Sequence record: ON528745
Length of the DNA stretch: 64,000 nucleotides
Direction: 5' to 3' (one strand)
Origin: Shigella phage ESH35
Below the pieces are notes generated by a model. It saw only the letters and a list, made by a program, of their open reading frames with translations. It was not told the origin of the DNA and made no database searches. Of this stretch, positions 12,720 through 33,677 are shown piece after piece. Made by a program: the position numbers and the translations under genes. The stretch's first letter is position 1; every line of letters begins with the position of its first letter.

Positions 12720-13429
12720 TGTTTGTGCTTACAGTTATCATTATGCCACCTTGATAAATTTCCGAAAGTGGTAACTTTACCACAATGGACGCAAGTACCA
12801 GTCTTTTCAGTTTTCTTGCGTCCATTTGGATTTTTCTTGCAGAAATTTCTATGCGCTGCGATAACGCATTTCTTGCCTATCATTCCGCAGAATTCGCAGG
12901 ATGTTTCTTCAAGAATGATTGCTTTAAGCCCGTTTGAGATATTATTTCTGTGTTCTTTAGACATCGGTGGTCTAACTTTAGGATTAGGGTGATTCGGGCA
13001 GTTATCAAAATGCCATCGATTCATATTCCCGCTTAATCCGGACTTACCGCAATGTGGACAAGTTAGTCTTGCTTTATTAGCTACTGCATCAGACATTTTC
13101 TTTCGTGTCTCCTGGGAGAATTCTTTATTCTTTTCTATTTCCCAGAGTTTACGACGAATCCAACCGAAAGTTTTATTGTTACGTTTAGCGTATTTCGTGG
13201 AAACTGTCATCATGTTAGCAGCATAGACTAATTTTGGTTCAGAAGGATAAATTTTTACTAAAAGTTGATGAGCTACATAGTGCTCTTCCGGTGTTAAATC
13301 TACTAAGTTTGAAGCATCATCGCTGCCATTTAAACAGCGTGGTATAATGTGATGAGATTCAGTATAGCAATCAAGTTTTCGAGATTTAGCATTAGAGATT
13401 AACTTTTCATAAATTAGTTTATAATTCAT
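12716..13429 (-). mobile_element. free-standing HNH homing endonuclease with three C-x2-C...H...C zinc-knuckle repeats
   Basis: N-terminal HNH motif (SHHIIPR...NLVDLTPEEH); antisense to neighbours; 4-bp tail-to-tail overlap with gene 46. Confidence 0.75.
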
Positions 13430-13462
13430 AACATATCCTTTTGATACAGCGAGTGATAAACA

Positions 13463-13470
13463 TATTTATA
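13463..13470 (-). promoter_or_regulatory. late promoter TATAAATA for the HNH gene
   Basis: exact TATAAATA on - strand about 35 nt upstream of start; AAGGA SD at 6 nt spacing. Confidence 0.55.
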
Positions 13471-13480
13471 CGGAGGAACT

Positions 13481-13672
13481 GTGGCAGAATATTCAACTGG
13501 ACAGCATCTATTAACTTTTCCTGAAATAAAACGATATATTCTGAGAAATAATTTTTCTAATGAAGAGCATATAGTTACTGAATCTATGCTTAGGAATGCA
13601 TTTAAAGCAGAATATACAAAAATAATGTCCAATAGAAATGAAGCTTGGACTGTTACTGATTATTATGACTAA
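13481..13672 (+). CDS. hypothetical protein (63 aa)
   Basis: GTG start with GGAGG upstream. Confidence 0.4.
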   Translation: MAEYSTGQHLLTFPEIKRYILRNNFSNEEHIVTESMLRNAFKAEYTKIMSNRNEAWTVTDYYD

Positions 13673-13681
13673 AGGTGTATT

Positions 13682-14071
13682 ATGACTAAAATTACTGTGA
13701 ATTATACTGTTGATGTAAAAGATATTCAGCCAAAACACGTGCGTTCTGAATCAAATCCACAAAACCAAAATAAAATTCGTCGAGCATGGGTTTTGTCTCT
13801 TTCTGATAACGCAATGGAAGTTATTCAGAACAAAATTAAATCTGCACCTGCTCGTCATGCGTATTATGAAGCTATCGATCGTGAAGTAAGTAATAAATGG
13901 ATTGAACTAATGCGCAAACATACTACAGAATCCCTAAACGCCGGTGCTAAATTTATTATGACTTCATGCGGTGAACGTCTTGAAGATGAATATTGCGGCA
14001 ATGCAGATGAACGTCTGATTGTTGCTGCTCAAATTGTTGCCGAAACAATCGCAGCTGATTTTAATCGTTAA
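13682..14071 (+). CDS. rpbA: RNA-polymerase-binding protein RpbA-like (by size and position)
   Basis: 129 aa, between genes 46 and 45 as in T4. Confidence 0.5.
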
Positions 14072-14126
14072 TTGCTTTATTAAATTAGTTATAAAATTAA
14101 ATCTCATTTGAATTGAAGGAAATTAC

Positions 14127-14813
14127 ATGAAACTGTCTAAAGATACTACTGCTCTGCTTAAAAATTTCGCTACTATTAACTCTGGTATTATGCTTAAATC
14201 AGGTCAATTTATTATGACTCGTGCGGTTAATGGTACAACTTATGCGGAAGCAAATATTTCTGACGTTATTGATTTTGATGTAGCAATTTACGATTTGAAC
14301 GGTTTTCTCGGTATTCTGTCTCTAGTTAATGATGATGCAGAAATTTCCCAGTCAGAAGATGGAAATATTAAAATTGCTGATGCCCGCTCAACAATTTTTT
14401 GGCCAGCAGCCGATCCGAGTACAGTAGTTGCTCCTAATAAACCAATTCCATTCCCGGTAGCATCTGTTGTTACTGAAATTAAAGCTGAAGACCTTCAACA
14501 GCTGTTGCGTGTATCTCGTGGTCTGCAGATTGATACAATTGCTATCACGGTAAAAGAAGGTAAAATCGTAATTAACGGTTTTAATAAAGTAGAAGATTCT
14601 GCTCTTACCCGTGTTAAATATTCTTTGACTCTTGGTGATTATGATGGTGAAAATACATTTAATTTCATTATCAATATGGCAAATATGAAAATGCAACCAG
14701 GAAATTATAAACTTCTGCTCTGGGCAAAAGGTAAACAAGGCGCTGCTAAATTTGAAGGTGAACACGCGAATTATGTAGTAGCTCTTGAAGCTGATTCTAC
14801 CCACGATTTTTAA
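14127..14813 (+). CDS. 45: sliding clamp
   Basis: 228 aa; position in the 45-44-62 operon. Confidence 0.92.
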   Translation: MKLSKDTTALLKNFATINSGIMLKSGQFIMTRAVNGTTYAEANISDVIDFDVAIYDLNGFLGILSLVNDDAEISQSEDGNIKIADARSTIFWPAADPSTVVAPNKPIPFPVASVVTEIKAEDLQQLLRVSRGLQIDTIAITVKEGKIVINGFNKVEDSALTRVKYSLTLGDYDGENTFNFIINMANMKMQPGNYKLLLWAKGKQGAAKFEGEHANYVVALEADSTHDF

Positions 14814-14816
14814 TAG

Positions 14817-14832
14817 AGGGCTTCGGCCCTTT
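14817..14832 (+). terminator. UUCG-tetraloop hairpin after gene 45
   Basis: AGGGC-ttcg-GCCCT then TTT. Confidence 0.5.
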
Positions 14833-14864
14833 ATAATTTACACTAAAACTTGAATGAGGAAATT

Positions 14865-15824
14865 ATGATTACCGTAAATGAAAAAGAACACATTCTTGAA
14901 CAGAAATATCGTCCATCTACTATCGATGAATGTATTCTTCCCGCCTTTGATAAAGAAACCTTTAAATCTATTACAAGTAAAGGTAAGATTCCACATATTA
15001 TTCTTCATTCTCCTTCTCCAGGAACAGGTAAAACAACTGTAGCAAAAGCATTGTGTCATGATGTAAATGCTGATATGATGTTTGTGAATGGGTCAGATTG
15101 TAAAATTGATTTCGTTCGTGGTCCTTTGACTAATTTTGCCAGCGCCGCTTCATTTGATGGTCGTCAAAAAGTAATCGTTATTGATGAATTTGACCGTTCA
15201 GGGTTAGCAGAGTCTCAGCGACATCTTCGTTCCTTTATGGAAGCTTATAGTTCAAACTGCAGTATTATTATTACTGCTAACAATATTGATGGTATTATTA
15301 AACCGCTTCAGTCACGCTGTCGAGTTATTACATTCGGTCAACCAACTGATGAAGATAAAATTGAAATGATGAAGCAGATGATTCGTCGATTAACTGAAAT
15401 CTGCAAGCATGAAGGAATTGCTATAGCTGATATGAAAGTTGTAGCAGCTTTGGTTAAAAAGAATTTTCCTGATTTTCGTAAAACTATTGGTGAGCTCGAT
15501 AGTTATTCATCTAAAGGTGTTTTGGATGCTGGTATTTTATCACTGGTTACTAACGATCGTGGTGCTATTGATGATGTTCTTGAATCTCTCAAAAATAAAG
15601 ATGTTAAACAGCTCAGAGCTTTAGCGCCAAAATATGCAGCTGATTATTCGTGGTTCGTAGGTAAACTTGCCGAAGAAATCTATACACGCGTAACTCCACA
15701 AAGTATTATTCGTATGTATGAAATTGTTGGTGAAAATAACCAGTATCACGGAATTGCGGCTAATACTGAATTACATTTAGCATATCTTTTCATTCAATTA
15801 GCATGCGAAATGCAGTGGAAGTGA
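14865..15824 (+). CDS. 44: clamp loader large subunit (AAA+)
   Basis: 319 aa from internal ATG; Walker A GTGKTT; matches recalled T4 gp44. Confidence 0.92.
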
Positions 15825-27241: not shown

Positions 27242-28270
27242 ATGTCATTAATACCTTGGATTGATAATGAGTTTGCATACCGTGCATTGGCTCATTTACC
27301 TAAATTCGCACAAGTAAATAATAGTTCAACTTTTAAATTACGGTTTAGATGTCCCGTTTGTGGAGATTCAAAAACCGATCAAAATAAAGCCCGTGGATGG
27401 TATTATGGCGATAATAATGAAGGAAATATTCATTGTTATAACTGTAACTATCATGCACCAATTGGAATATATTTAAAGGAGTTTGAACCTGATTTATATC
27501 GTGAGTATATCTTTGAAATAAGAAAAGAAAAAGGTAAAAGTCGTCCAGTAGAAAAACCTAAAGAACTTCCTAAACAACCTGAGAAAAAAATAATTAAATC
27601 TCTTCCGTCATGTATTAGATTAGATAAACTGGCGGAAGACCATCCAATTATAAAATATGTAAAAGCTCGTTGTATTCCAAAGGATAAATGGAAATATCTT
27701 TGGTTTACAACCGAATGGCCTAAATTAGTTAATAGTATAGCGCCAGGAACATATAAAAAGGAAATACCTGAGCCTCGTCTTGTTATTCCAATTTATAATG
27801 CTAACGGAAAAGCCGAGTCTTTTCAAGGCCGTGCATTAAAGAAAGATGCTCCTCAAAAATATATCACCATAAAAGCTTATCCTGAAGCAACAAAAATCTA
27901 TGGCGTTGAACGAGTTAAAGATGGTGATGTATATGTTCTAGAAGGACCTATAGATTCACTTTTTATTGAAAATGGTATAGCTATTACGGGTGGTCAATTA
28001 GACCTAGAAGTTGTTCCATTTAAAGATAGACGTGTGTGGGTTTTAGATAATGAACCTCGTCATCCTGACACTATTAAACGAATGACTAAATTAGTTGATG
28101 CAGGAGAAAGGGTTATGTTTTGGGACAAATCTCCCTGGAAATCAAAAGATGTTAATGATATGATTAGAAAGGAAGGTGCAACCCCTGAACAAATTATGGA
28201 ATATATGAAAAATAATATTGCTCAGGGGTTGATGGCTAAAATGCGGTTATCTAAATATGCTAAGATTTAA
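27242..28270 (+). CDS. 61: DNA primase
   Basis: 342 aa; N-terminal zinc-binding CPVCGDS...CYNCN; TOPRIM-like region. Confidence 0.92.
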   Translation: MSLIPWIDNEFAYRALAHLPKFAQVNNSSTFKLRFRCPVCGDSKTDQNKARGWYYGDNNEGNIHCYNCNYHAPIGIYLKEFEPDLYREYIFEIRKEKGKSRPVEKPKELPKQPEKKIIKSLPSCIRLDKLAEDHPIIKYVKARCIPKDKWKYLWFTTEWPKLVNSIAPGTYKKEIPEPRLVIPIYNANGKAESFQGRALKKDAPQKYITIKAYPEATKIYGVERVKDGDVYVLEGPIDSLFIENGIAITGGQLDLEVVPFKDRRVWVLDNEPRHPDTIKRMTKLVDAGERVMFWDKSPWKSKDVNDMIRKEGATPEQIMEYMKNNIAQGLMAKMRLSKYAKI

Positions 28271-28467
28271 ATTAACCCAACTAAAGCGAATGCTAAATCT
28301 ACAAATGTATCAAGAGTAACTACTGGAATATTAATACCATGTGCAATTGCAACAGGTGATAGAATAAAGTTCCAGAGTAAAATTCCTACCATAGCAGAAA
28401 TAGTAAAAGCTATACGTTTTTTATTACCTTTTATGGCATTAACAAGTGCCATTAATTTTTGTACCAT
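28267..28467 (-). CDS. antisense small hydrophobic protein (66 aa)
   Basis: strong AAGGAGG SD 4 nt upstream; tail-to-tail 4-bp overlap with gene 61; two hydrophobic segments. Confidence 0.35.
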   Translation of the reverse strand: MVQKLMALVNAIKGNKKRIAFTISAMVGILLWNFILSPVAIAHGINIPVVTLDTFVDLAFALVGLI

Positions 28468-28478
28468 ATGTCCTCCTT

Positions 28479-28504
28479 ATTGCTTTATATATTTATTGTA
28501 TAAT
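28479..28504 (+). promoter_or_regulatory. MotA-dependent middle promoter for gene 56
   Basis: perfect MotA box ATTGCTTTA, 11 bp, then TATAAT. Confidence 0.55.
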
Positions 28505-28540
28505 TAATCTACTAACCCATGAATTGAAAGGAAAAATAAC

Positions 28541-29059
28541 ATGCCACATTTCAACGAATGTAGTCAACTGATCGAAGGCGCTGATAAAGCTCAAAATGAA
28601 TATTGGGATATTCTCGGTGATGAAAAAGACCCGCTGCAGGTAATGCTTGACATGCAGAAATCTCTGCAGATTCGTTTAGCTAAAGATAAACCTGAATATA
28701 ATCGTCATCCTGATGATTTGGCTACTGCCGGTGAAGTTGTTGATTGGCTACGTAATCAGAAAGATTATATTGACGATGAATTCCGTGAACTTCTGACATC
28801 TCTTGGCGGTATGAGCAATGGCGAAAAAGATGCATCTGCTGTATGGAAGCCTTGGAAAGCTCAACATGGTGAACGCCGTGAAACTCTGATTACTGATTTG
28901 TCTCCACAAGACCAATTGGAAATTAAATTTGAAATGATTGATATTCTCCATTTCGTTCTGAACATGTTCCAAGGTCTTGGTCTTACAGCTGAAGAAATCT
29001 TTAAACTTTATTACCTGAAAAATGCTGAAAATTTCGCACGTCAAGACCGAGGTTATTAA
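28541..29059 (+). CDS. 56: dCTPase/dUTPase (MazG-like NTP pyrophosphohydrolase)
   Basis: 172 aa, acidic EExxE-type motifs. Confidence 0.7.
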   Translation: MPHFNECSQLIEGADKAQNEYWDILGDEKDPLQVMLDMQKSLQIRLAKDKPEYNRHPDDLATAGEVVDWLRNQKDYIDDEFRELLTSLGGMSNGEKDASAVWKPWKAQHGERRETLITDLSPQDQLEIKFEMIDILHFVLNMFQGLGLTAEEIFKLYYLKNAENFARQDRGY

Positions 29060-29089
29060 CAGCTCGTCTTAAAAGCCGCGAGAATTTAT

Positions 29090-29097
29090 TATAAATA
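29090..29097 (+). promoter_or_regulatory. late promoter TATAAATA upstream of soc
   Basis: exact TATAAATA about 30 nt upstream of soc start. Confidence 0.55.
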
Positions 29098-29127
29098 ATC
29101 ATGTAATTTAAATAAAAGGAGAATTAC

Positions 29128-29385
29128 ATGGCTAGTACTCGCGGTTATGTTAATATCAAAACATTTGACCAAGCAGTTGATGGTGGTACAATTCAGGGTA
29201 AAGAAATTTCTGTAGCTTTCCCTCTTTATTCTGATGTTCACAAAATTTCTGGTGCTCATTATCAGACATTCCCTTCTGAAAAAGCAGCATATTCTACAGT
29301 ATATGAAGAAAATCAGCGTACTAAATGGATCACTGCTAATGAAGGTCTTTGGACTGTTACACCGACACCAGGTGTCGGTGGTTAA
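29128..29385 (+). CDS. soc: small outer capsid protein
   Basis: 85 aa; closely matches recalled T4 Soc. Confidence 0.8.
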   Translation: MASTRGYVNIKTFDQAVDGGTIQGKEISVAFPLYSDVHKISGAHYQTFPSEKAAYSTVYEENQRTKWITANEGLWTVTPTPGVGG

Positions 29386-29394
29386 ATAATTTAA

Positions 29395-29418
29395 GGAATC
29401 CTCCGGGATTCCTTTTTT
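29395..29418 (+). terminator. rho-independent terminator after soc
   Basis: GGAATCC-tccg-GGATTCC then TTTTTT. Confidence 0.7.
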
Positions 29419-29428
29419 CATTTTATGG

Positions 29429-29457
29429 TTTACATGTCAAAATGAGTGTGGTATAAT
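29429..29457 (+). promoter_or_regulatory. T4-type early promoter
   Basis: TTTACA, 17 bp, TGgTATAAT. Confidence 0.6.
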
Positions 29458-29483
29458 AAAAATATCTTATAGAGGAGAACACT

Positions 29484-29696
29484 ATGTTAAATCGTTGGAT
29501 TAAACCAAATGAAGACCTCCAGAAGGTTCTTGATAAAGCTATCGCTGATAAATGGGGTATGAAAAGCTGGGATTGTGATGTCGTCACGCATTCATTCATG
29601 ATGCACGCAGATGGTTCAGTCGAGTTCAATGCTGAAATGCGATATACTGACTGGGGTGGATTTCAAAGAGTCGAATTTCAAAGAGGATTTTTGTGA
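29484..29696 (+). CDS. hypothetical protein (70 aa)
   Basis: ATG with AGAGGAG SD. Confidence 0.45.
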   Translation: MLNRWIKPNEDLQKVLDKAIADKWGMKSWDCDVVTHSFMMHADGSVEFNAEMRYTDWGGFQRVEFQRGFL

Positions 29697-30037
29697 TGTT
29701 TATCTTTAATTGGTTTAAAAGTTTCTTTACGGATTTTTTCTCTACGACTCCTGGGGAAGGTGTAGTTCCTATTTCAAATGACTACCTCCCTTTAACTGTA
29801 GTTGAATATGTTTATATGGGAGATGGAACAGTAGAAGCAGTTACTATGACTTATGAAGAAGCCCAAGAATATTATAAAAATCCTTGGCGCTGGTCAACAC
29901 CTACTACATCATCTAATACGCAGAATACACAGTCTAGTTCTGATTCATATGACACTAATGTTCCTGTTCATGTATGGACGGGCGATTCGTGTGGAAGTTC
30001 TTGCGATTCTAGTTGTTCATCTACATCATGCGATTGA
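29696..30037 (+). CDS. hypothetical protein with Ser/Cys-rich C-terminal tail
   Basis: hydrophobic N-terminus; C-terminus [18 protein letters not shown]. Confidence 0.45.
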
Positions 30038-30045
30038 GGAAAAAT

Positions 30046-30531
30046 ATGGAAGCGATTTTGTTTGAAATGTATATTAGCAGTAATAGCATGTCGTTTGCTA
30101 AAGACGTTCCAATTACCGTAGCAGTAATGATTGATAAGGGTTATTGTGACCCAATGTATCTCGTAGAAAATTTTGTTTCAATGCCAGTTCCAGAAGATGC
30201 TGAAATAAAACTTAAAAAGATTGGTATTATTGAAACTGTACCAAATATTCCGTTTAGAGCAATTGAAGCATTTACTAAATCTGAATACATTAATGTTAGC
30301 ACAGAACATTATAATGATAAACCTTTATCTTTCTATTCGTATGATTCAGTATATAGTTGGAAAATAGATAAAGGAAATAAATTTATAATTGTGAGTGAAG
30401 ATGCTTTATCATACTTTATTTCTTCTGTATGGAATAGTTTACATCCAAATTTGCTAAAAATTCATGAATTTGATGATGCTCCTACTGTTGTTTTAGGTAA
30501 AACAAATGAAAGTTCTGAAGAAAATGTTTGA
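30046..30531 (+). CDS. hypothetical protein (161 aa)
   Basis: internal ATG of track ORF with GAGGA SD. Confidence 0.45.
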
Positions 30532-30709
30532 ATGGTTCAATAGACCAAACTCAATGTACATTGATGATGGTTGGGTTGAACAAGCAAATAAAGAAATGCA
30601 GAACGAGTCAGAAGAATGGATGAAATCAATGATTAGTGCTGAGAAAGAAAAGAAATTAGAACGCTCAGCGCTTAAATTGATGAGAGACATCTATGGTGAT
30701 AAATCATGA
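30524..30709 (+). CDS. hypothetical small protein (61 aa)
   Basis: internal ATG overlapping previous stop. Confidence 0.35.
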
Positions 30710-30870
30710 CCAAAGATATGACGTTAGAAGAGGCTAAAGCTAAAGCAAATGAAGCCTTGGATTTGCTTCTTAAAATTGGCAGTAAAATGATGGAAGAAAA
30801 TGAGAAGTATATCCAGGAAAATAAAATTCCTGACGGTCCATTAGTAGGCAAAAGGAAATCACATGATTGA
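30706..30870 (+). CDS. hypothetical small protein (54 aa)
   Basis: ATGA overlaps at both ends. Confidence 0.3.
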
Positions 30871-31333
30871 AGTAGCAAAATTATATTCAATAGAATTTAT
30901 GTCCAAAGAAGGTAAATCAGTAAATACACTTGATAAAAAATGCTCATTGATTATTCCTTTAGCAGAAAATCCGGATTTTTTAATTAAAGATATAAAAGAA
31001 AGAAAATATCCAGAAAATGTTATTCTAATTATAAAGCATACTGAAGATATTTTGCAGAATACTGATTCACCGTTTTCTTCTTCTGAAGCTTTAACTATTA
31101 AAGGCTATAAAAGAGCTCATGAATATGGTCTTTTTGACCTGTTTGAAGATGATAAAGTTAAATTAGCGAGTCAGCCTTTTAAAAGTAAAACATTCATTAT
31201 TGAAGATATTAAAGATATAAATGCATTTGTTAAGATGGTCTGGGCTCATTTTGATGTTGGACTACGCTGGAGAATGTCCGAAGAAGAAAGAAAGATTATT
31301 GAAGCTAATCGTCAATTTGGTTTTTATCGCTAG
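30863..31333 (+). CDS. hypothetical protein (156 aa)
   Basis: ATG ORF; sits where T4 mrh lies relative to modB, identity not established. Confidence 0.45.
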
Positions 31334-31341
31334 GAATTAAT

Positions 31342-31524
31342 ATGGATTTATTTGAGATGTTAGAAGATAATCATTCTACGAATATCCAGAATGATTCTAG
31401 TGATTATAAGAAAGAGTACCGTATAGTATTACAGAATTATGGAATTGAAGCCCCAGATGCTCTTCTAGAAGAACTAGCTTCATACCATCTTGACCCTCCG
31501 CCTTGGGCTCCCTGGGCAAAATAA
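31342..31524 (+). CDS. hypothetical small acidic protein (60 aa)
   Basis: ATG ORF. Confidence 0.35.
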   Translation: MDLFEMLEDNHSTNIQNDSSDYKKEYRIVLQNYGIEAPDALLEELASYHLDPPPWAPWAK

Positions 31525-31536
31525 TTCAAAAAGTTG

Positions 31537-31565
31537 TTTACTTTCCTTTCTAACGATGATATGAT
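31537..31565 (+). promoter_or_regulatory. early-promoter-like element upstream of modB
   Basis: TTTACT, 17 bp, TATGAT. Confidence 0.4.
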
Positions 31566-31591
31566 AGCTTCTGAAGTATACGGAGGCTATC

Positions 31592-32215
31592 ATGATTATT
31601 AATCTTGCAGATGTTGAACAGTTATCTATAAAAGCTGAAAGCGTTGATTTTCAATATGATATGTATAAAAAGGTCTGTGAAAAATTTACTGACTTTGAAC
31701 AGTCAATTCTTTGGCAATGTATGGAAGCCAAAAAGAATGAAGCTCTTCATAGGCAGTTGAATAAAATCATTAAAAAGCATTTAACTAAATCACCTTATCA
31801 GTTATATCGTGGTATATCAAAATCGACAAAAGAACTCATTAAAGATTTACAAGTTGGAGAAGTGTTTTCAACGAACAGGGTAGATTCATTTACTACTAGT
31901 TTGCACACAGCATGTGGTTTTTCTTATGTTGAGTATTTCACTGAAATAATATTTCGCTTAAAAACTGATAAAGCTTTTAATTATTCTGACCATATCAGCG
32001 ATATTATACTTTCTTCTCCTAATACTGAGTTTAAGTACACGTATGAAGATACTGGTGGGCTAGATTCAGAGCGTACTGATAACTTAATGATGATTGTGCG
32101 TGAACAAGAATGGATGATTCCAATTGGAAAGTATAGAATAACTTCTATTTCAAAAGAAAAATTACACGATTCATTTGGAACATTTAAAGTGTATGATATT
32201 GAGGTAGTTGAATGA
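31592..32215 (+). CDS. modB: ADP-ribosyltransferase (ModB-like)
   Basis: 207 aa; R...S-T...E catalytic triad pattern; paralogue of next gene. Confidence 0.65.
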   Translation: MIINLADVEQLSIKAESVDFQYDMYKKVCEKFTDFEQSILWQCMEAKKNEALHRQLNKIIKKHLTKSPYQLYRGISKSTKELIKDLQVGEVFSTNRVDSFTTSLHTACGFSYVEYFTEIIFRLKTDKAFNYSDHISDIILSSPNTEFKYTYEDTGGLDSERTDNLMMIVREQEWMIPIGKYRITSISKEKLHDSFGTFKVYDIEVVE

Positions 32216-32814
32216 AATATTCAGCAATGCAATTAAAAGATTTTAAAATCAAATCAATGGATGCATCTGTGCGTGCTTCTATTCGTGAAGAATTACTTTC
32301 CGAAGGATTTAATTTATCTGAAATTGAACTTTTAATTCATTGTATTACTAATAAACCAGACGATCATTCTTGGTTAAATGAAATAGTCAAATCTCGTTTG
32401 GTTCCAAACGATAAACCTCTTTGGAGAGGTGTTCCAGTTGAGACTAAACAGGTGTTAAATCAAGGAATTGATATTATTACATTTGATAAAGTAGTATCAG
32501 CTTCATATGATAAAAATATAGCTCTACATTTTGCTTCTGGATTAGAATACAACACACAAGTTATTTTTGAATTCAAAGCTCCTATGGTGTTTAATTTCCA
32601 GGAGTATGCTATAAAAGCTTTACGTTGTAAAGAATATAGTCCGAGTTTTAAGTTTCCGGATAGCCATCGCTATCGTAATATGGAATTAGTTTCAGATGAA
32701 CAAGAAGTAATGATACCAGCTGGAAGTGTATTTAGAATTGCGGATAGATACGAGTATAAAAAGTATTCAACATACACTATCTATACTCTTGATTTTGAAG
32801 GATTTAATCTATAA
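32212..32814 (+). CDS. modA: ADP-ribosyltransferase (ModA-like)
   Basis: 200 aa; same triad pattern; ATGA overlap with modB. Confidence 0.65.
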   Translation: MKYSAMQLKDFKIKSMDASVRASIREELLSEGFNLSEIELLIHCITNKPDDHSWLNEIVKSRLVPNDKPLWRGVPVETKQVLNQGIDIITFDKVVSASYDKNIALHFASGLEYNTQVIFEFKAPMVFNFQEYAIKALRCKEYSPSFKFPDSHRYRNMELVSDEQEVMIPAGSVFRIADRYEYKKYSTYTIYTLDFEGFNL

Positions 32815-32871
32815 TGGAAGGACTTAGATTCATTATACCATGAAAGTTTTAAAGCATTTTTCATAAAGTTG

Positions 32872-32900
32872 TTTACAAGCCAAGGTAAAAATGTTATAGT
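32872..32900 (+). promoter_or_regulatory. T4-type early promoter
   Basis: TTTACA, 17 bp, TATAGT. Confidence 0.5.
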
Positions 32901-32930
32901 ATAAGTAGTTAACCCGTCCGTGAGAAAAAT

Positions 32931-33677
32931 ATGAAACTGTCTAAAAATCAAATTCGTAAAATTACACGTCGTCTAGAGCACACTCAGGCATCTGCTAAAA
33001 GACGTTCTAAAGATTTTAACTTAGACTTCAATTACATTAAGAACATTTTAGATCAGAAAGTTTGCGCTTACTCAGGAGAACCTTTTGATAATCGTATTGA
33101 AGGAGAGAAATTATCATTAGAACGTTTTGATAATAACGTTGGATACATTAAAGGGAATGTTATTGCAGTAAAGAAAAAGTACAATACATTTCGTTCTGAT
33201 TATACTTTAGAAGAGTTGATTGAAAAACGGGATTTATTTGCTTTGCGAATTGGTCGTTCATCTGCGAAAAAAGTTCATAAACTAAATTTAGATGAAAAGA
33301 AATGGGCTAAAATCAAAAAGACTTATAATCAAATTAAAGCTATACAGAAAAAACGTGAAAATCGAATTGAACACATTTCTCAGCTTTCTAAATCAAAACA
33401 GACCTCTGACATTAAGCTAAGGATTATAGCACTTAAAGCTCGTATTGATGGTTCTCGCATAGCAGAAGGCGCTGAAGTTGTTAAACTGAACGTTCTTCTT
33501 AAAGGCTCGGATTGGAAAATTGTGAAAAAGTTGTCAGAAGCAGAAATGCAATATGATATGTGTGATAAAATTATTCAAGGTGTAGAGCGGTATCAAAACT
33601 TGTCTTTTATTGATAAACTTAAACTGAAAAGAGGATACCCGCTAAATTGTTCAATTTTTAAACTTATCCGAGGATAA
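32931..33677 (+). CDS. basic protein (248 aa) at the T4 srd position
   Basis: size and synteny only. Confidence 0.45.
   Translation: MKLSKNQIRKITRRLEHTQASAKRRSKDFNLDFNYIKNILDQKVCAYSGEPFDNRIEGEKLSLERFDNNVGYIKGNVIAVKKKYNTFRSDYTLEELIEKRDLFALRIGRSSAKKVHKLNLDEKKWAKIKKTYNQIKAIQKKRENRIEHISQLSKSKQTSDIKLRIIALKARIDGSRIAEGAEVVKLNVLLKGSDWKIVKKLSEAEMQYDMCDKIIQGVERYQNLSFIDKLKLKRGYPLNCSIFKLIRG

Follow-up and report, generated by a model that had tools for sequence, protein, structure and literature searches.

What do the seven tightly packed open reading frames (ORFs) between soc and modB encode, and are they peculiar to this phage or shared with its relatives? The DNA analysed here, a stretch of 64,000 nucleotides from Shigella phage ESH35 (hereafter the window), is a segment of a T4-like phage genome (Tequatrovirus) whose + strand is the direction of T4 early transcription. 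The gene order around the locus is 61 (primase), a 66-aa minus-strand ORF, 56 (dCTPase), soc, the seven ORFs, modB, modA, srd, dda.1, and dda, with the seven ORFs closely packed on the + strand at 29484–31524. A preliminary description of this block could match none of the ORFs to a known product and portrayed the interval as hyperplastic and as differing in size from that of T4. Comparison with T4 leads to another answer: the seven ORFs are ordinary copies of the T4 early genes mrh.2, mrh.1, mrh, srh, modA.4, modA.3, and modA.2. Our analyses, read jointly, make it very probable that the block is the Tequatrovirus copy of the T4 mrh.2–modA.2 cluster, a translationally coupled and non-essential early operon for host takeover.

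Between soc and modB, the T4 reference genome (NC_000866) carries these seven genes and no others (13198–15232, T4p022–T4p028), and the window is colinear one to one with both T4 and RB32 in gene order and orientation. Homology searches returned T4 counterparts and PHROG families for all seven ORFs, as well as Pfam families for Mrh, ModA.3, and Mrh.1. Each ORF that had been left without a match is thus a named T4 gene, and phenotypes have been published for mrh and srh; what survives of the original statement is that the other five have no assigned function. All seven are conserved homologues of T4 genes, and those T4 genes are themselves characterised only in part. The distance from the soc stop codon to the modB start codon is 2206 bp in the window versus 2200 bp in T4 and, because these lengths are nearly equal, the interval is neither differently sized nor hyperplastic. 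Since genes, order, and spacing are the same as in T4, the block was already known, although most of its proteins are without an assigned biochemical function.

Table 1. Genes and regulatory elements of the soc–modB interval (positions refer to the window; identities are global amino acid identities to the T4 protein)
Feature	Position	Strand	Identity to T4	Remarks
Intrinsic terminator hairpin after soc	29393–29414	+		AAGGAATCC-TCCG-GGATTCCTT plus T-run; from terminator scan; 5′ boundary of the unit
T4-type early (σ70) promoter	29429–29457	+		(G)TTTACA, 17-nt spacer, TGgTATAAT; directly after the soc terminator
mrh.2 orthologue	29484–29696	+	58.6%	70 aa; RB27-type allele
mrh.1 orthologue	29696–30037	+	99.1%	113 aa; acidic; conserved Ser/Cys-rich C-terminal tail
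mrh orthologue	30046–30531	+	77.0%	161 aa
srh orthologue	30506–30709	+	98.5%	67 aa; 26-nt overlap with the 3′ end of mrh
modA.4 orthologue	30706–30870	+	96.3%	54 aa
modA.3 orthologue	30863–31333	+	95.5%	156 aa; distant Mrh paralogue
modA.2 orthologue	31342–31524	+	98.3%	60 aa; acidic; conserved C-terminal motif
Second early-type promoter, serving modB	31537–31565	+		TTTACT, 17-nt spacer, TGaTATGAT; 3′ boundary of the unit
RNA hairpin at the modB start	31555–31600	+		Shine-Dalgarno sequence and AUG of modB pair with the stretch containing the proximal promoter −10

T4 and the window also agree in gene lengths (except for two residues in Mrh.2), in the gene overlaps, in the soc terminator with its early promoter, and in the modB promoter with its hairpin. 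They differ in that mrh.2 (58.6%) and mrh (77%) are alleles other than those of T4, and in that T4 has segF and dam near this locus, upstream, whereas SegF and Dam are encoded nowhere in the whole window. On the absence of segF the preliminary description was correct, as a tblastn search with T4 SegF found no match anywhere in the window. A megablast search with 29000–31700 against 50,697 phage records returned 608 matching records, 494 of which match over 80% or more of the query. The nearest relatives of this segment are RB33 (KM607001) and RB32 (DQ904452), at 97.4% nucleotide identity and with the same seven genes annotated; unlike the window, both contain a second, partial copy of srh, a duplication of 91 bp (RB32ORF024c).

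Dhakavirus and Mosigvirus share most of the block genes. Dhakavirus JS10 has every one of them except mrh, and Mosigvirus RB69 contains mrh.2, a Mrh.1-like ORF025c, two short mrh fragments, ORF024c, modA.2, and a ModA.4-like ORF020c. The block is therefore stable within Tequatrovirus and no hyperplastic hotspot, with some gain and loss at the scale of the subfamily. Relative to T4, dN/dS is 0.31 for mrh.2, 0.02 for mrh.1, 0.35 for mrh, 0.03 for srh, 0.10 for modA.4, and 0.23 for modA.3, placing these six genes under purifying selection (0.02–0.35); modA.2 differs from its T4 counterpart by one nucleotide and is too similar to be scored. Each of the seven proteins matches its own PHROG family (E 4e-31 to 2e-61), and Shine-Dalgarno (SD) sequences or coupled starts were found for the shorter block genes. 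By these sequence hallmarks, the seven ORFs are real genes and not chance frames.

The layout of the block agrees largely with the preliminary description. Its claim of tight coupling is confirmed by the gene junctions, which from mrh.2 to modA.2 measure −1, +8, −26, −4, −8, and +8 nt in order. Six of the seven ORFs lie where it placed them; the exception is the fourth, srh, for which the ATG at 30506 (67 aa, as in the T4 annotation) is preferable to the ATG at 30524 (61 aa) because the divergent homologue P0169 opens with MKPLSWLKDW and lacks the internal Met. The strong early promoter reported at 29429 was recovered as well: it matches 11 of 12 consensus positions plus the extended −10 TG and is the top site in the scanned region of 4.6 kb (28400–33000). 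The soc terminator is kept in T4, RB32, JS10, and RB69, with a compensatory stem change in T4 (GGACTCC/GGAGTCC), and in the same four phages the GTTTAC −35 element does not vary; the SD sequence and the start of mrh.2 are conserved there too. A scan for MotA boxes, which mark middle promoters, gave a single weak TGCTT match within the block, at 30764. Rfam searches of the whole window, a tRNA scan, and a repeat search of 29000–32300 revealed nothing relevant.

At the 3′ boundary, the promoter scan identified the modB promoter as a 9/12 match with TG; T4 has the identical site, and JS10 and RB69 conserve it. The RNA hairpin that overlaps it has a minimum free energy of −20.8 kcal/mol (z = −5.2 versus shuffled sequences) and is retained in JS10 through compensatory changes. 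In the T4 genes e, soc, 49, and I-TevI, hairpins that sequester the ribosome-binding site (RBS) tie translation to the promoter that made the mRNA. The modB hairpin resembles these in pairing the SD sequence and AUG with a segment that is found only in read-through transcripts, and it differs from them in that both promoters of the modB region are of the early type. Our literature searches found no description of an RBS-sequestering hairpin for modB.

Two proteins of the block, Mrh and ModA.3, belong to the same Pfam family, PF24070 (T4_MRH), with E 5.6e-43 and 146.7 bits for Mrh and E 4.6e-38 and 130.7 bits for ModA.3; both matches span profile positions 1–143 of 144 and compare with a gathering cut-off of 24.4. 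The two proteins share about 20% identity, and Mrh is also assigned to phrog_1234. Within its family Mrh is highly polymorphic, forming 109 clusters at 90% identity that span 74–97%, and the family itself is very narrow, with 14 clusters at 50% identity in a profile search of 1.84 billion representative proteins. Structure prediction, which the preliminary description had suggested for each ORF, was run on Mrh and Srh with unequal success. The AlphaFold2 model of the Mrh monomer, built from a 33-sequence alignment of Mrh and ModA.3 relatives, has a mean pLDDT of 40.8 and is unusable because the family is too narrow; that of Srh reached 76.8. Sequence searches of the PDB with Mrh and ModA.3 found no relative and no Mrh entry. 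Recombinant Mrh has been described as eluting as a megadalton homo-oligomer, and its cryo-EM structure, at 3.3 Å, has been announced but not shown (PMC8076793). Literature searches on modA.2, modA.3, and modA.4 returned unrelated papers only.

Srh falls into phrog_2441, a family annotated as “decoy of host sigma32,” and we compared it with Escherichia coli σ32 (RpoH). Residues 23–60 of Srh align with residues 244–279 of σ32, within region 4.2, at 32% identity over 38 aa (pairwise BLASTP E 7e-4). The Smith-Waterman score of this pair is 58, a value reached by none of 3000 shuffled sequences (maximum 56), and the other six proteins of the block score 24–34. An hhalign comparison instead paired DDGWVEQAN of Srh with DDNWEEQAAN of σ32 (residues 214–222), at only 12.5% probability over 12 columns. 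The resemblance of Srh to σ32 is real but short, and Srh may be a functional mimic of σ32. Srh cannot be classed in the σ family itself: there is no match to a Pfam sigma-factor domain in Srh, and the AlphaFold2 model, a weak result given its very shallow alignment, shows a single uninterrupted helix (residues 22–63) instead of the helix-turn-helix of σ region 4.2. A Foldseek search of the PDB with this model gave nothing meaningful (best E 5.5), and a PDB sequence search with Srh found no relative. The likeness of Srh to T4 Srd (“decoy of σ70/σS”) and to AsiA is one of mechanism only: all three are small, made early, and proposed to disturb the working of a host σ factor. Srh differs from them in its predicted single long helix, in lacking a sigma-domain Pfam match, and in having a binding partner that is only proposed.

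The remaining four proteins are small and carry short conserved motifs. Mrh.2 (phrog_1873, E 4e-31) is 100% identical to the RB27 allele, and its motifs MLNRWIKPN and VHSFMM are invariant across three genera. In Tequatrovirus it exists as two deeply diverged allele classes, with 118 records at 95% identity or above, 346 at 60–80%, and 4 between. Deletions of up to 526 bp in mrh.2 are viable (PMC8262927). Mrh.1 matches Pfam PF23836 (DUF7206) over the full profile (positions 1–107 of 107; E 1.5e-29; 103.1 bits against a gathering cut-off of 25.6). Its C-terminal tail, W-x-GDS...SCDS..SS.SCD, is kept in JS10 and in RB69 ORF025c, and it has a second motif, 11 letters long, that is conserved across genera; a PDB sequence search with Mrh.1 found no relative. 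A match of the tail to FxLD lanthipeptide precursors (E 0.034, 14 bits against a cut-off of 30) was dismissed as an effect of Ser/Cys composition. ModA.4 (phrog_2681, E 1.7e-37) shares a C-terminal PDGPLVGK motif with RB69 ORF020c. ModA.2 (phrog_1647) has a C-terminal motif, LASY..DPPPWAPW.K, that is conserved across genera, and the protein is found in 992 phage records, Klebsiella and Enterobacter phages among them.

Published phenotypes are available for part of the block. Effects of mrh and srh on T4 late transcription, both at 42 °C and in certain rpoH (σ32) mutants, are described in PMC6070864, which cites Mosig et al. 1998; under either of these conditions Mrh is reported to inhibit the expression of late genes. 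The σ32 link of the two genes goes back to genetics of the 1990s and is taken here from the citing papers PMC6070864 and PMC8076793. In the transposon mutagenesis of T4 (HIDEN-SEQ), the supplementary data (bioRxiv 10.1101/2025.11.20.689424) list all insertion sites as tolerated in all seven genes; CRISPRi-ART scores mrh.1 as “Semi-Fit” and the other six genes as “Not Fit” (PMC11879866 supplement). By these published T4 screens, laboratory hosts can be infected without any one of the seven genes, and whatever they do must therefore be conditional. The preliminary description was right to place the block where host-takeover genes accumulate: this early part of T-even genomes is dispensable and contains host-modulating genes.

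These observations suggest how the block may operate. Unmodified host σ70 RNA polymerase would fire the promoter at 29429–29457 in the first minutes of infection, and the seven cistrons would be translated as one coupled unit, an arrangement that we propose because their start and stop codons overlap or sit 8 nt apart. Transcripts reading through into modB should not be translated there because the hairpin pairs the SD sequence and AUG with the promoter −10 segment; it would thus hide the modB start in read-through RNA, whereas RNA from modB's own proximal promoter would leave the start free. Among the products, Srh, with one long predicted helix and a stretch resembling σ32 region 4, would compete with σ32 for a partner, in keeping with the “decoy” idea. 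ModA.3, as a distant paralogue of Mrh, probably acts in a manner related to it. Mrh.2, Mrh.1, ModA.4, and ModA.2, all small and acidic or helical, most likely bind host proteins during takeover, beside ModB, ModA, and Srd. We predict with modest confidence that these four are host-protein-binding takeover factors because of their early expression, small size, acidity, short conserved motifs, and neighbours (ModB, ModA, and Srd).

Other readings of the block can be weighed against this evidence. Were it an accessory island specific to this phage, newly acquired in a hyperplastic region and lacking counterparts in T4, the absence of segF and dam, which T4 carries nearby, would be in keeping, as would the gain and loss of genes at this interval in other genera (no mrh in JS10; a fragmented mrh and ORF024c in RB69). 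The one-to-one colinearity with T4 at 59–99% amino acid identity, the equal length of the interval, and the presence of the block in at least 494 sequenced phages speak against such an island; colinearity and interval length refute it, and we give it almost no credence. Equally far-fetched is the view that some of the shorter ORFs (54–70 aa) are unexpressed chance frames in AT-rich DNA, for which their shortness is the argument. The mrh.2, srh, and modA.4 genes have dN/dS values of 0.03–0.31 and a dedicated PHROG family each, motif-bearing orthologues persist at 35–60% identity in other genera, and SD sequences or coupled starts are present.

A more serious competitor, though still an unlikely one, holds that at least one of the seven proteins neutralises a bacterial immune system, or affects host range, rather than modulating transcription. 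The genes are early, dispensable, small, and acidic, and the region also holds ADP-ribosyltransferases that the HIDEN-SEQ main text ties to defence evasion. The split of Mrh.2 into two allele classes and the polymorphism of Mrh form a pattern typical of arms-race genes, but allelic mosaicism is widespread in T-even genomes anyway. Homology to described systems is absent from PADLOC, NCBIfam, and Pfam beyond orphan families: searches with the seven proteins gave no PADLOC match at E ≤ 0.1, a weak test of an anti-defence role because PADLOC models defence systems and not anti-defence, and sub-threshold noise only in NCBIfam. The HIDEN-SEQ comparisons in the sections available show no conditional depletion of block genes (q = 1.0), and none of the seven is among the new anti-defence genes named there. 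That there is a host-range or counter-defence factor among the five unstudied proteins, acting via a short conserved motif, likewise strikes us as improbable. Candidates for such a role can still be pointed out: Mrh.2, with its deeply diverged alleles and almost no intermediates; Mrh.1, with its conserved Ser/Cys tail and the sole marginal CRISPRi fitness signal in the block; and ModA.2, with its DPPPWAPW tail and its spread over Klebsiella and Enterobacter T4-like phages.

Read as the Tequatrovirus copy of the T4 mrh.2–modA.2 cluster, the block belongs to the textbook map of T4, is present in hundreds of sequenced relatives, and carries little weight as a discovery. The value of the analysis lies in correction: the ORFs receive their proper names, the start of srh is set right, and the interval is no longer to be called unusual. 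That five widely conserved early products have no assigned function is a gap already recognised. Should a counter-defence or host-range role prove true for any of them, it would assign a role to genes that have gone without one ever since the sequencing of T4.

Divergence of the window from T4 over mrh.2, mrh and their neighbours is, at the level of amino acid identity, mosaic. Mrh.2 (58.6%), Mrh (77%) and the products of genes 56 (74%) and soc (80%) are far diverged from their T4 counterparts, and interleaved with them are mrh.1, srh and modA.2-4, whose products remain 95-99% identical. Across Tequatrovirus there are two discrete allele classes of Mrh.2, and the protein in the window is the RB27 allele at 100% identity. 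In RB32 and RB33, 91 bp of srh are duplicated between mrh and srh (RB32ORF024c); this partial duplication is absent from the window, and because of it the megablast match to these two phages is split in two pieces. Between genes 61 and 56, T4 carries dam, whereas the window has on the opposite strand an ORF for a hydrophobic 66-aa protein, a homologue of RB69ORF029w. No homologue of Dam or SegF was found anywhere within the 64 kb.

Coordinates of features in the window and in RB32
Feature	Position	Strand	Remark
66-aa ORF	28267-28467	-	
soc late-promoter motif	29090-29097		31 nt upstream of soc start
mrh.2	29484-29696	+	
Mrh.1 C-terminus	29975-30034	+	
mrh	30046-30531	+	
RB32ORF024c	3007-3123 in L001 (the RB32 stretch)		corresponds to window ~30506-30531
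modA.4, modA.3, modA.2	30706-31524	+	
Proximal early promoter	31537-31565	+	
modB RBS hairpin	31555-31600	+	-20.8 kcal/mol, z = -5.2
modB start	31592		

The C terminus of Mrh.1 is an acidic tail rich in Ser and Cys that ends in SCD or SCE in three genera. A match of this tail to a lanthipeptide precursor model was sub-threshold (E 0.034) and driven by composition, and we rejected it. In T4, the CRISPRi fitness signal of mrh.1 is marginal, and no other gene of the block gives one (supplementary data of PMC11879866). Many T4-like genomes in GenBank call modA.2, modA.3 and modA.4 [quoted passage not shown] (for example, PP400785, ON528743, and MT968995). This label is an annotation error that arises from the shared gene symbol modA.

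Upstream of the block, the late-promoter motif TATAAATA fits the view of soc as a late gene that sits between early units. At the other end, the Shine-Dalgarno sequence and AUG of modB are sequestered in a predicted strong hairpin, which is the same in T4 and RB32 and is retained in JS10 through compensatory changes; we found no source that describes such an arrangement for modB. Because the -10 element of the proximal early promoter lies inside the 5' arm of this hairpin, a translational block would affect modB transcripts only where these read through from the upstream operon.
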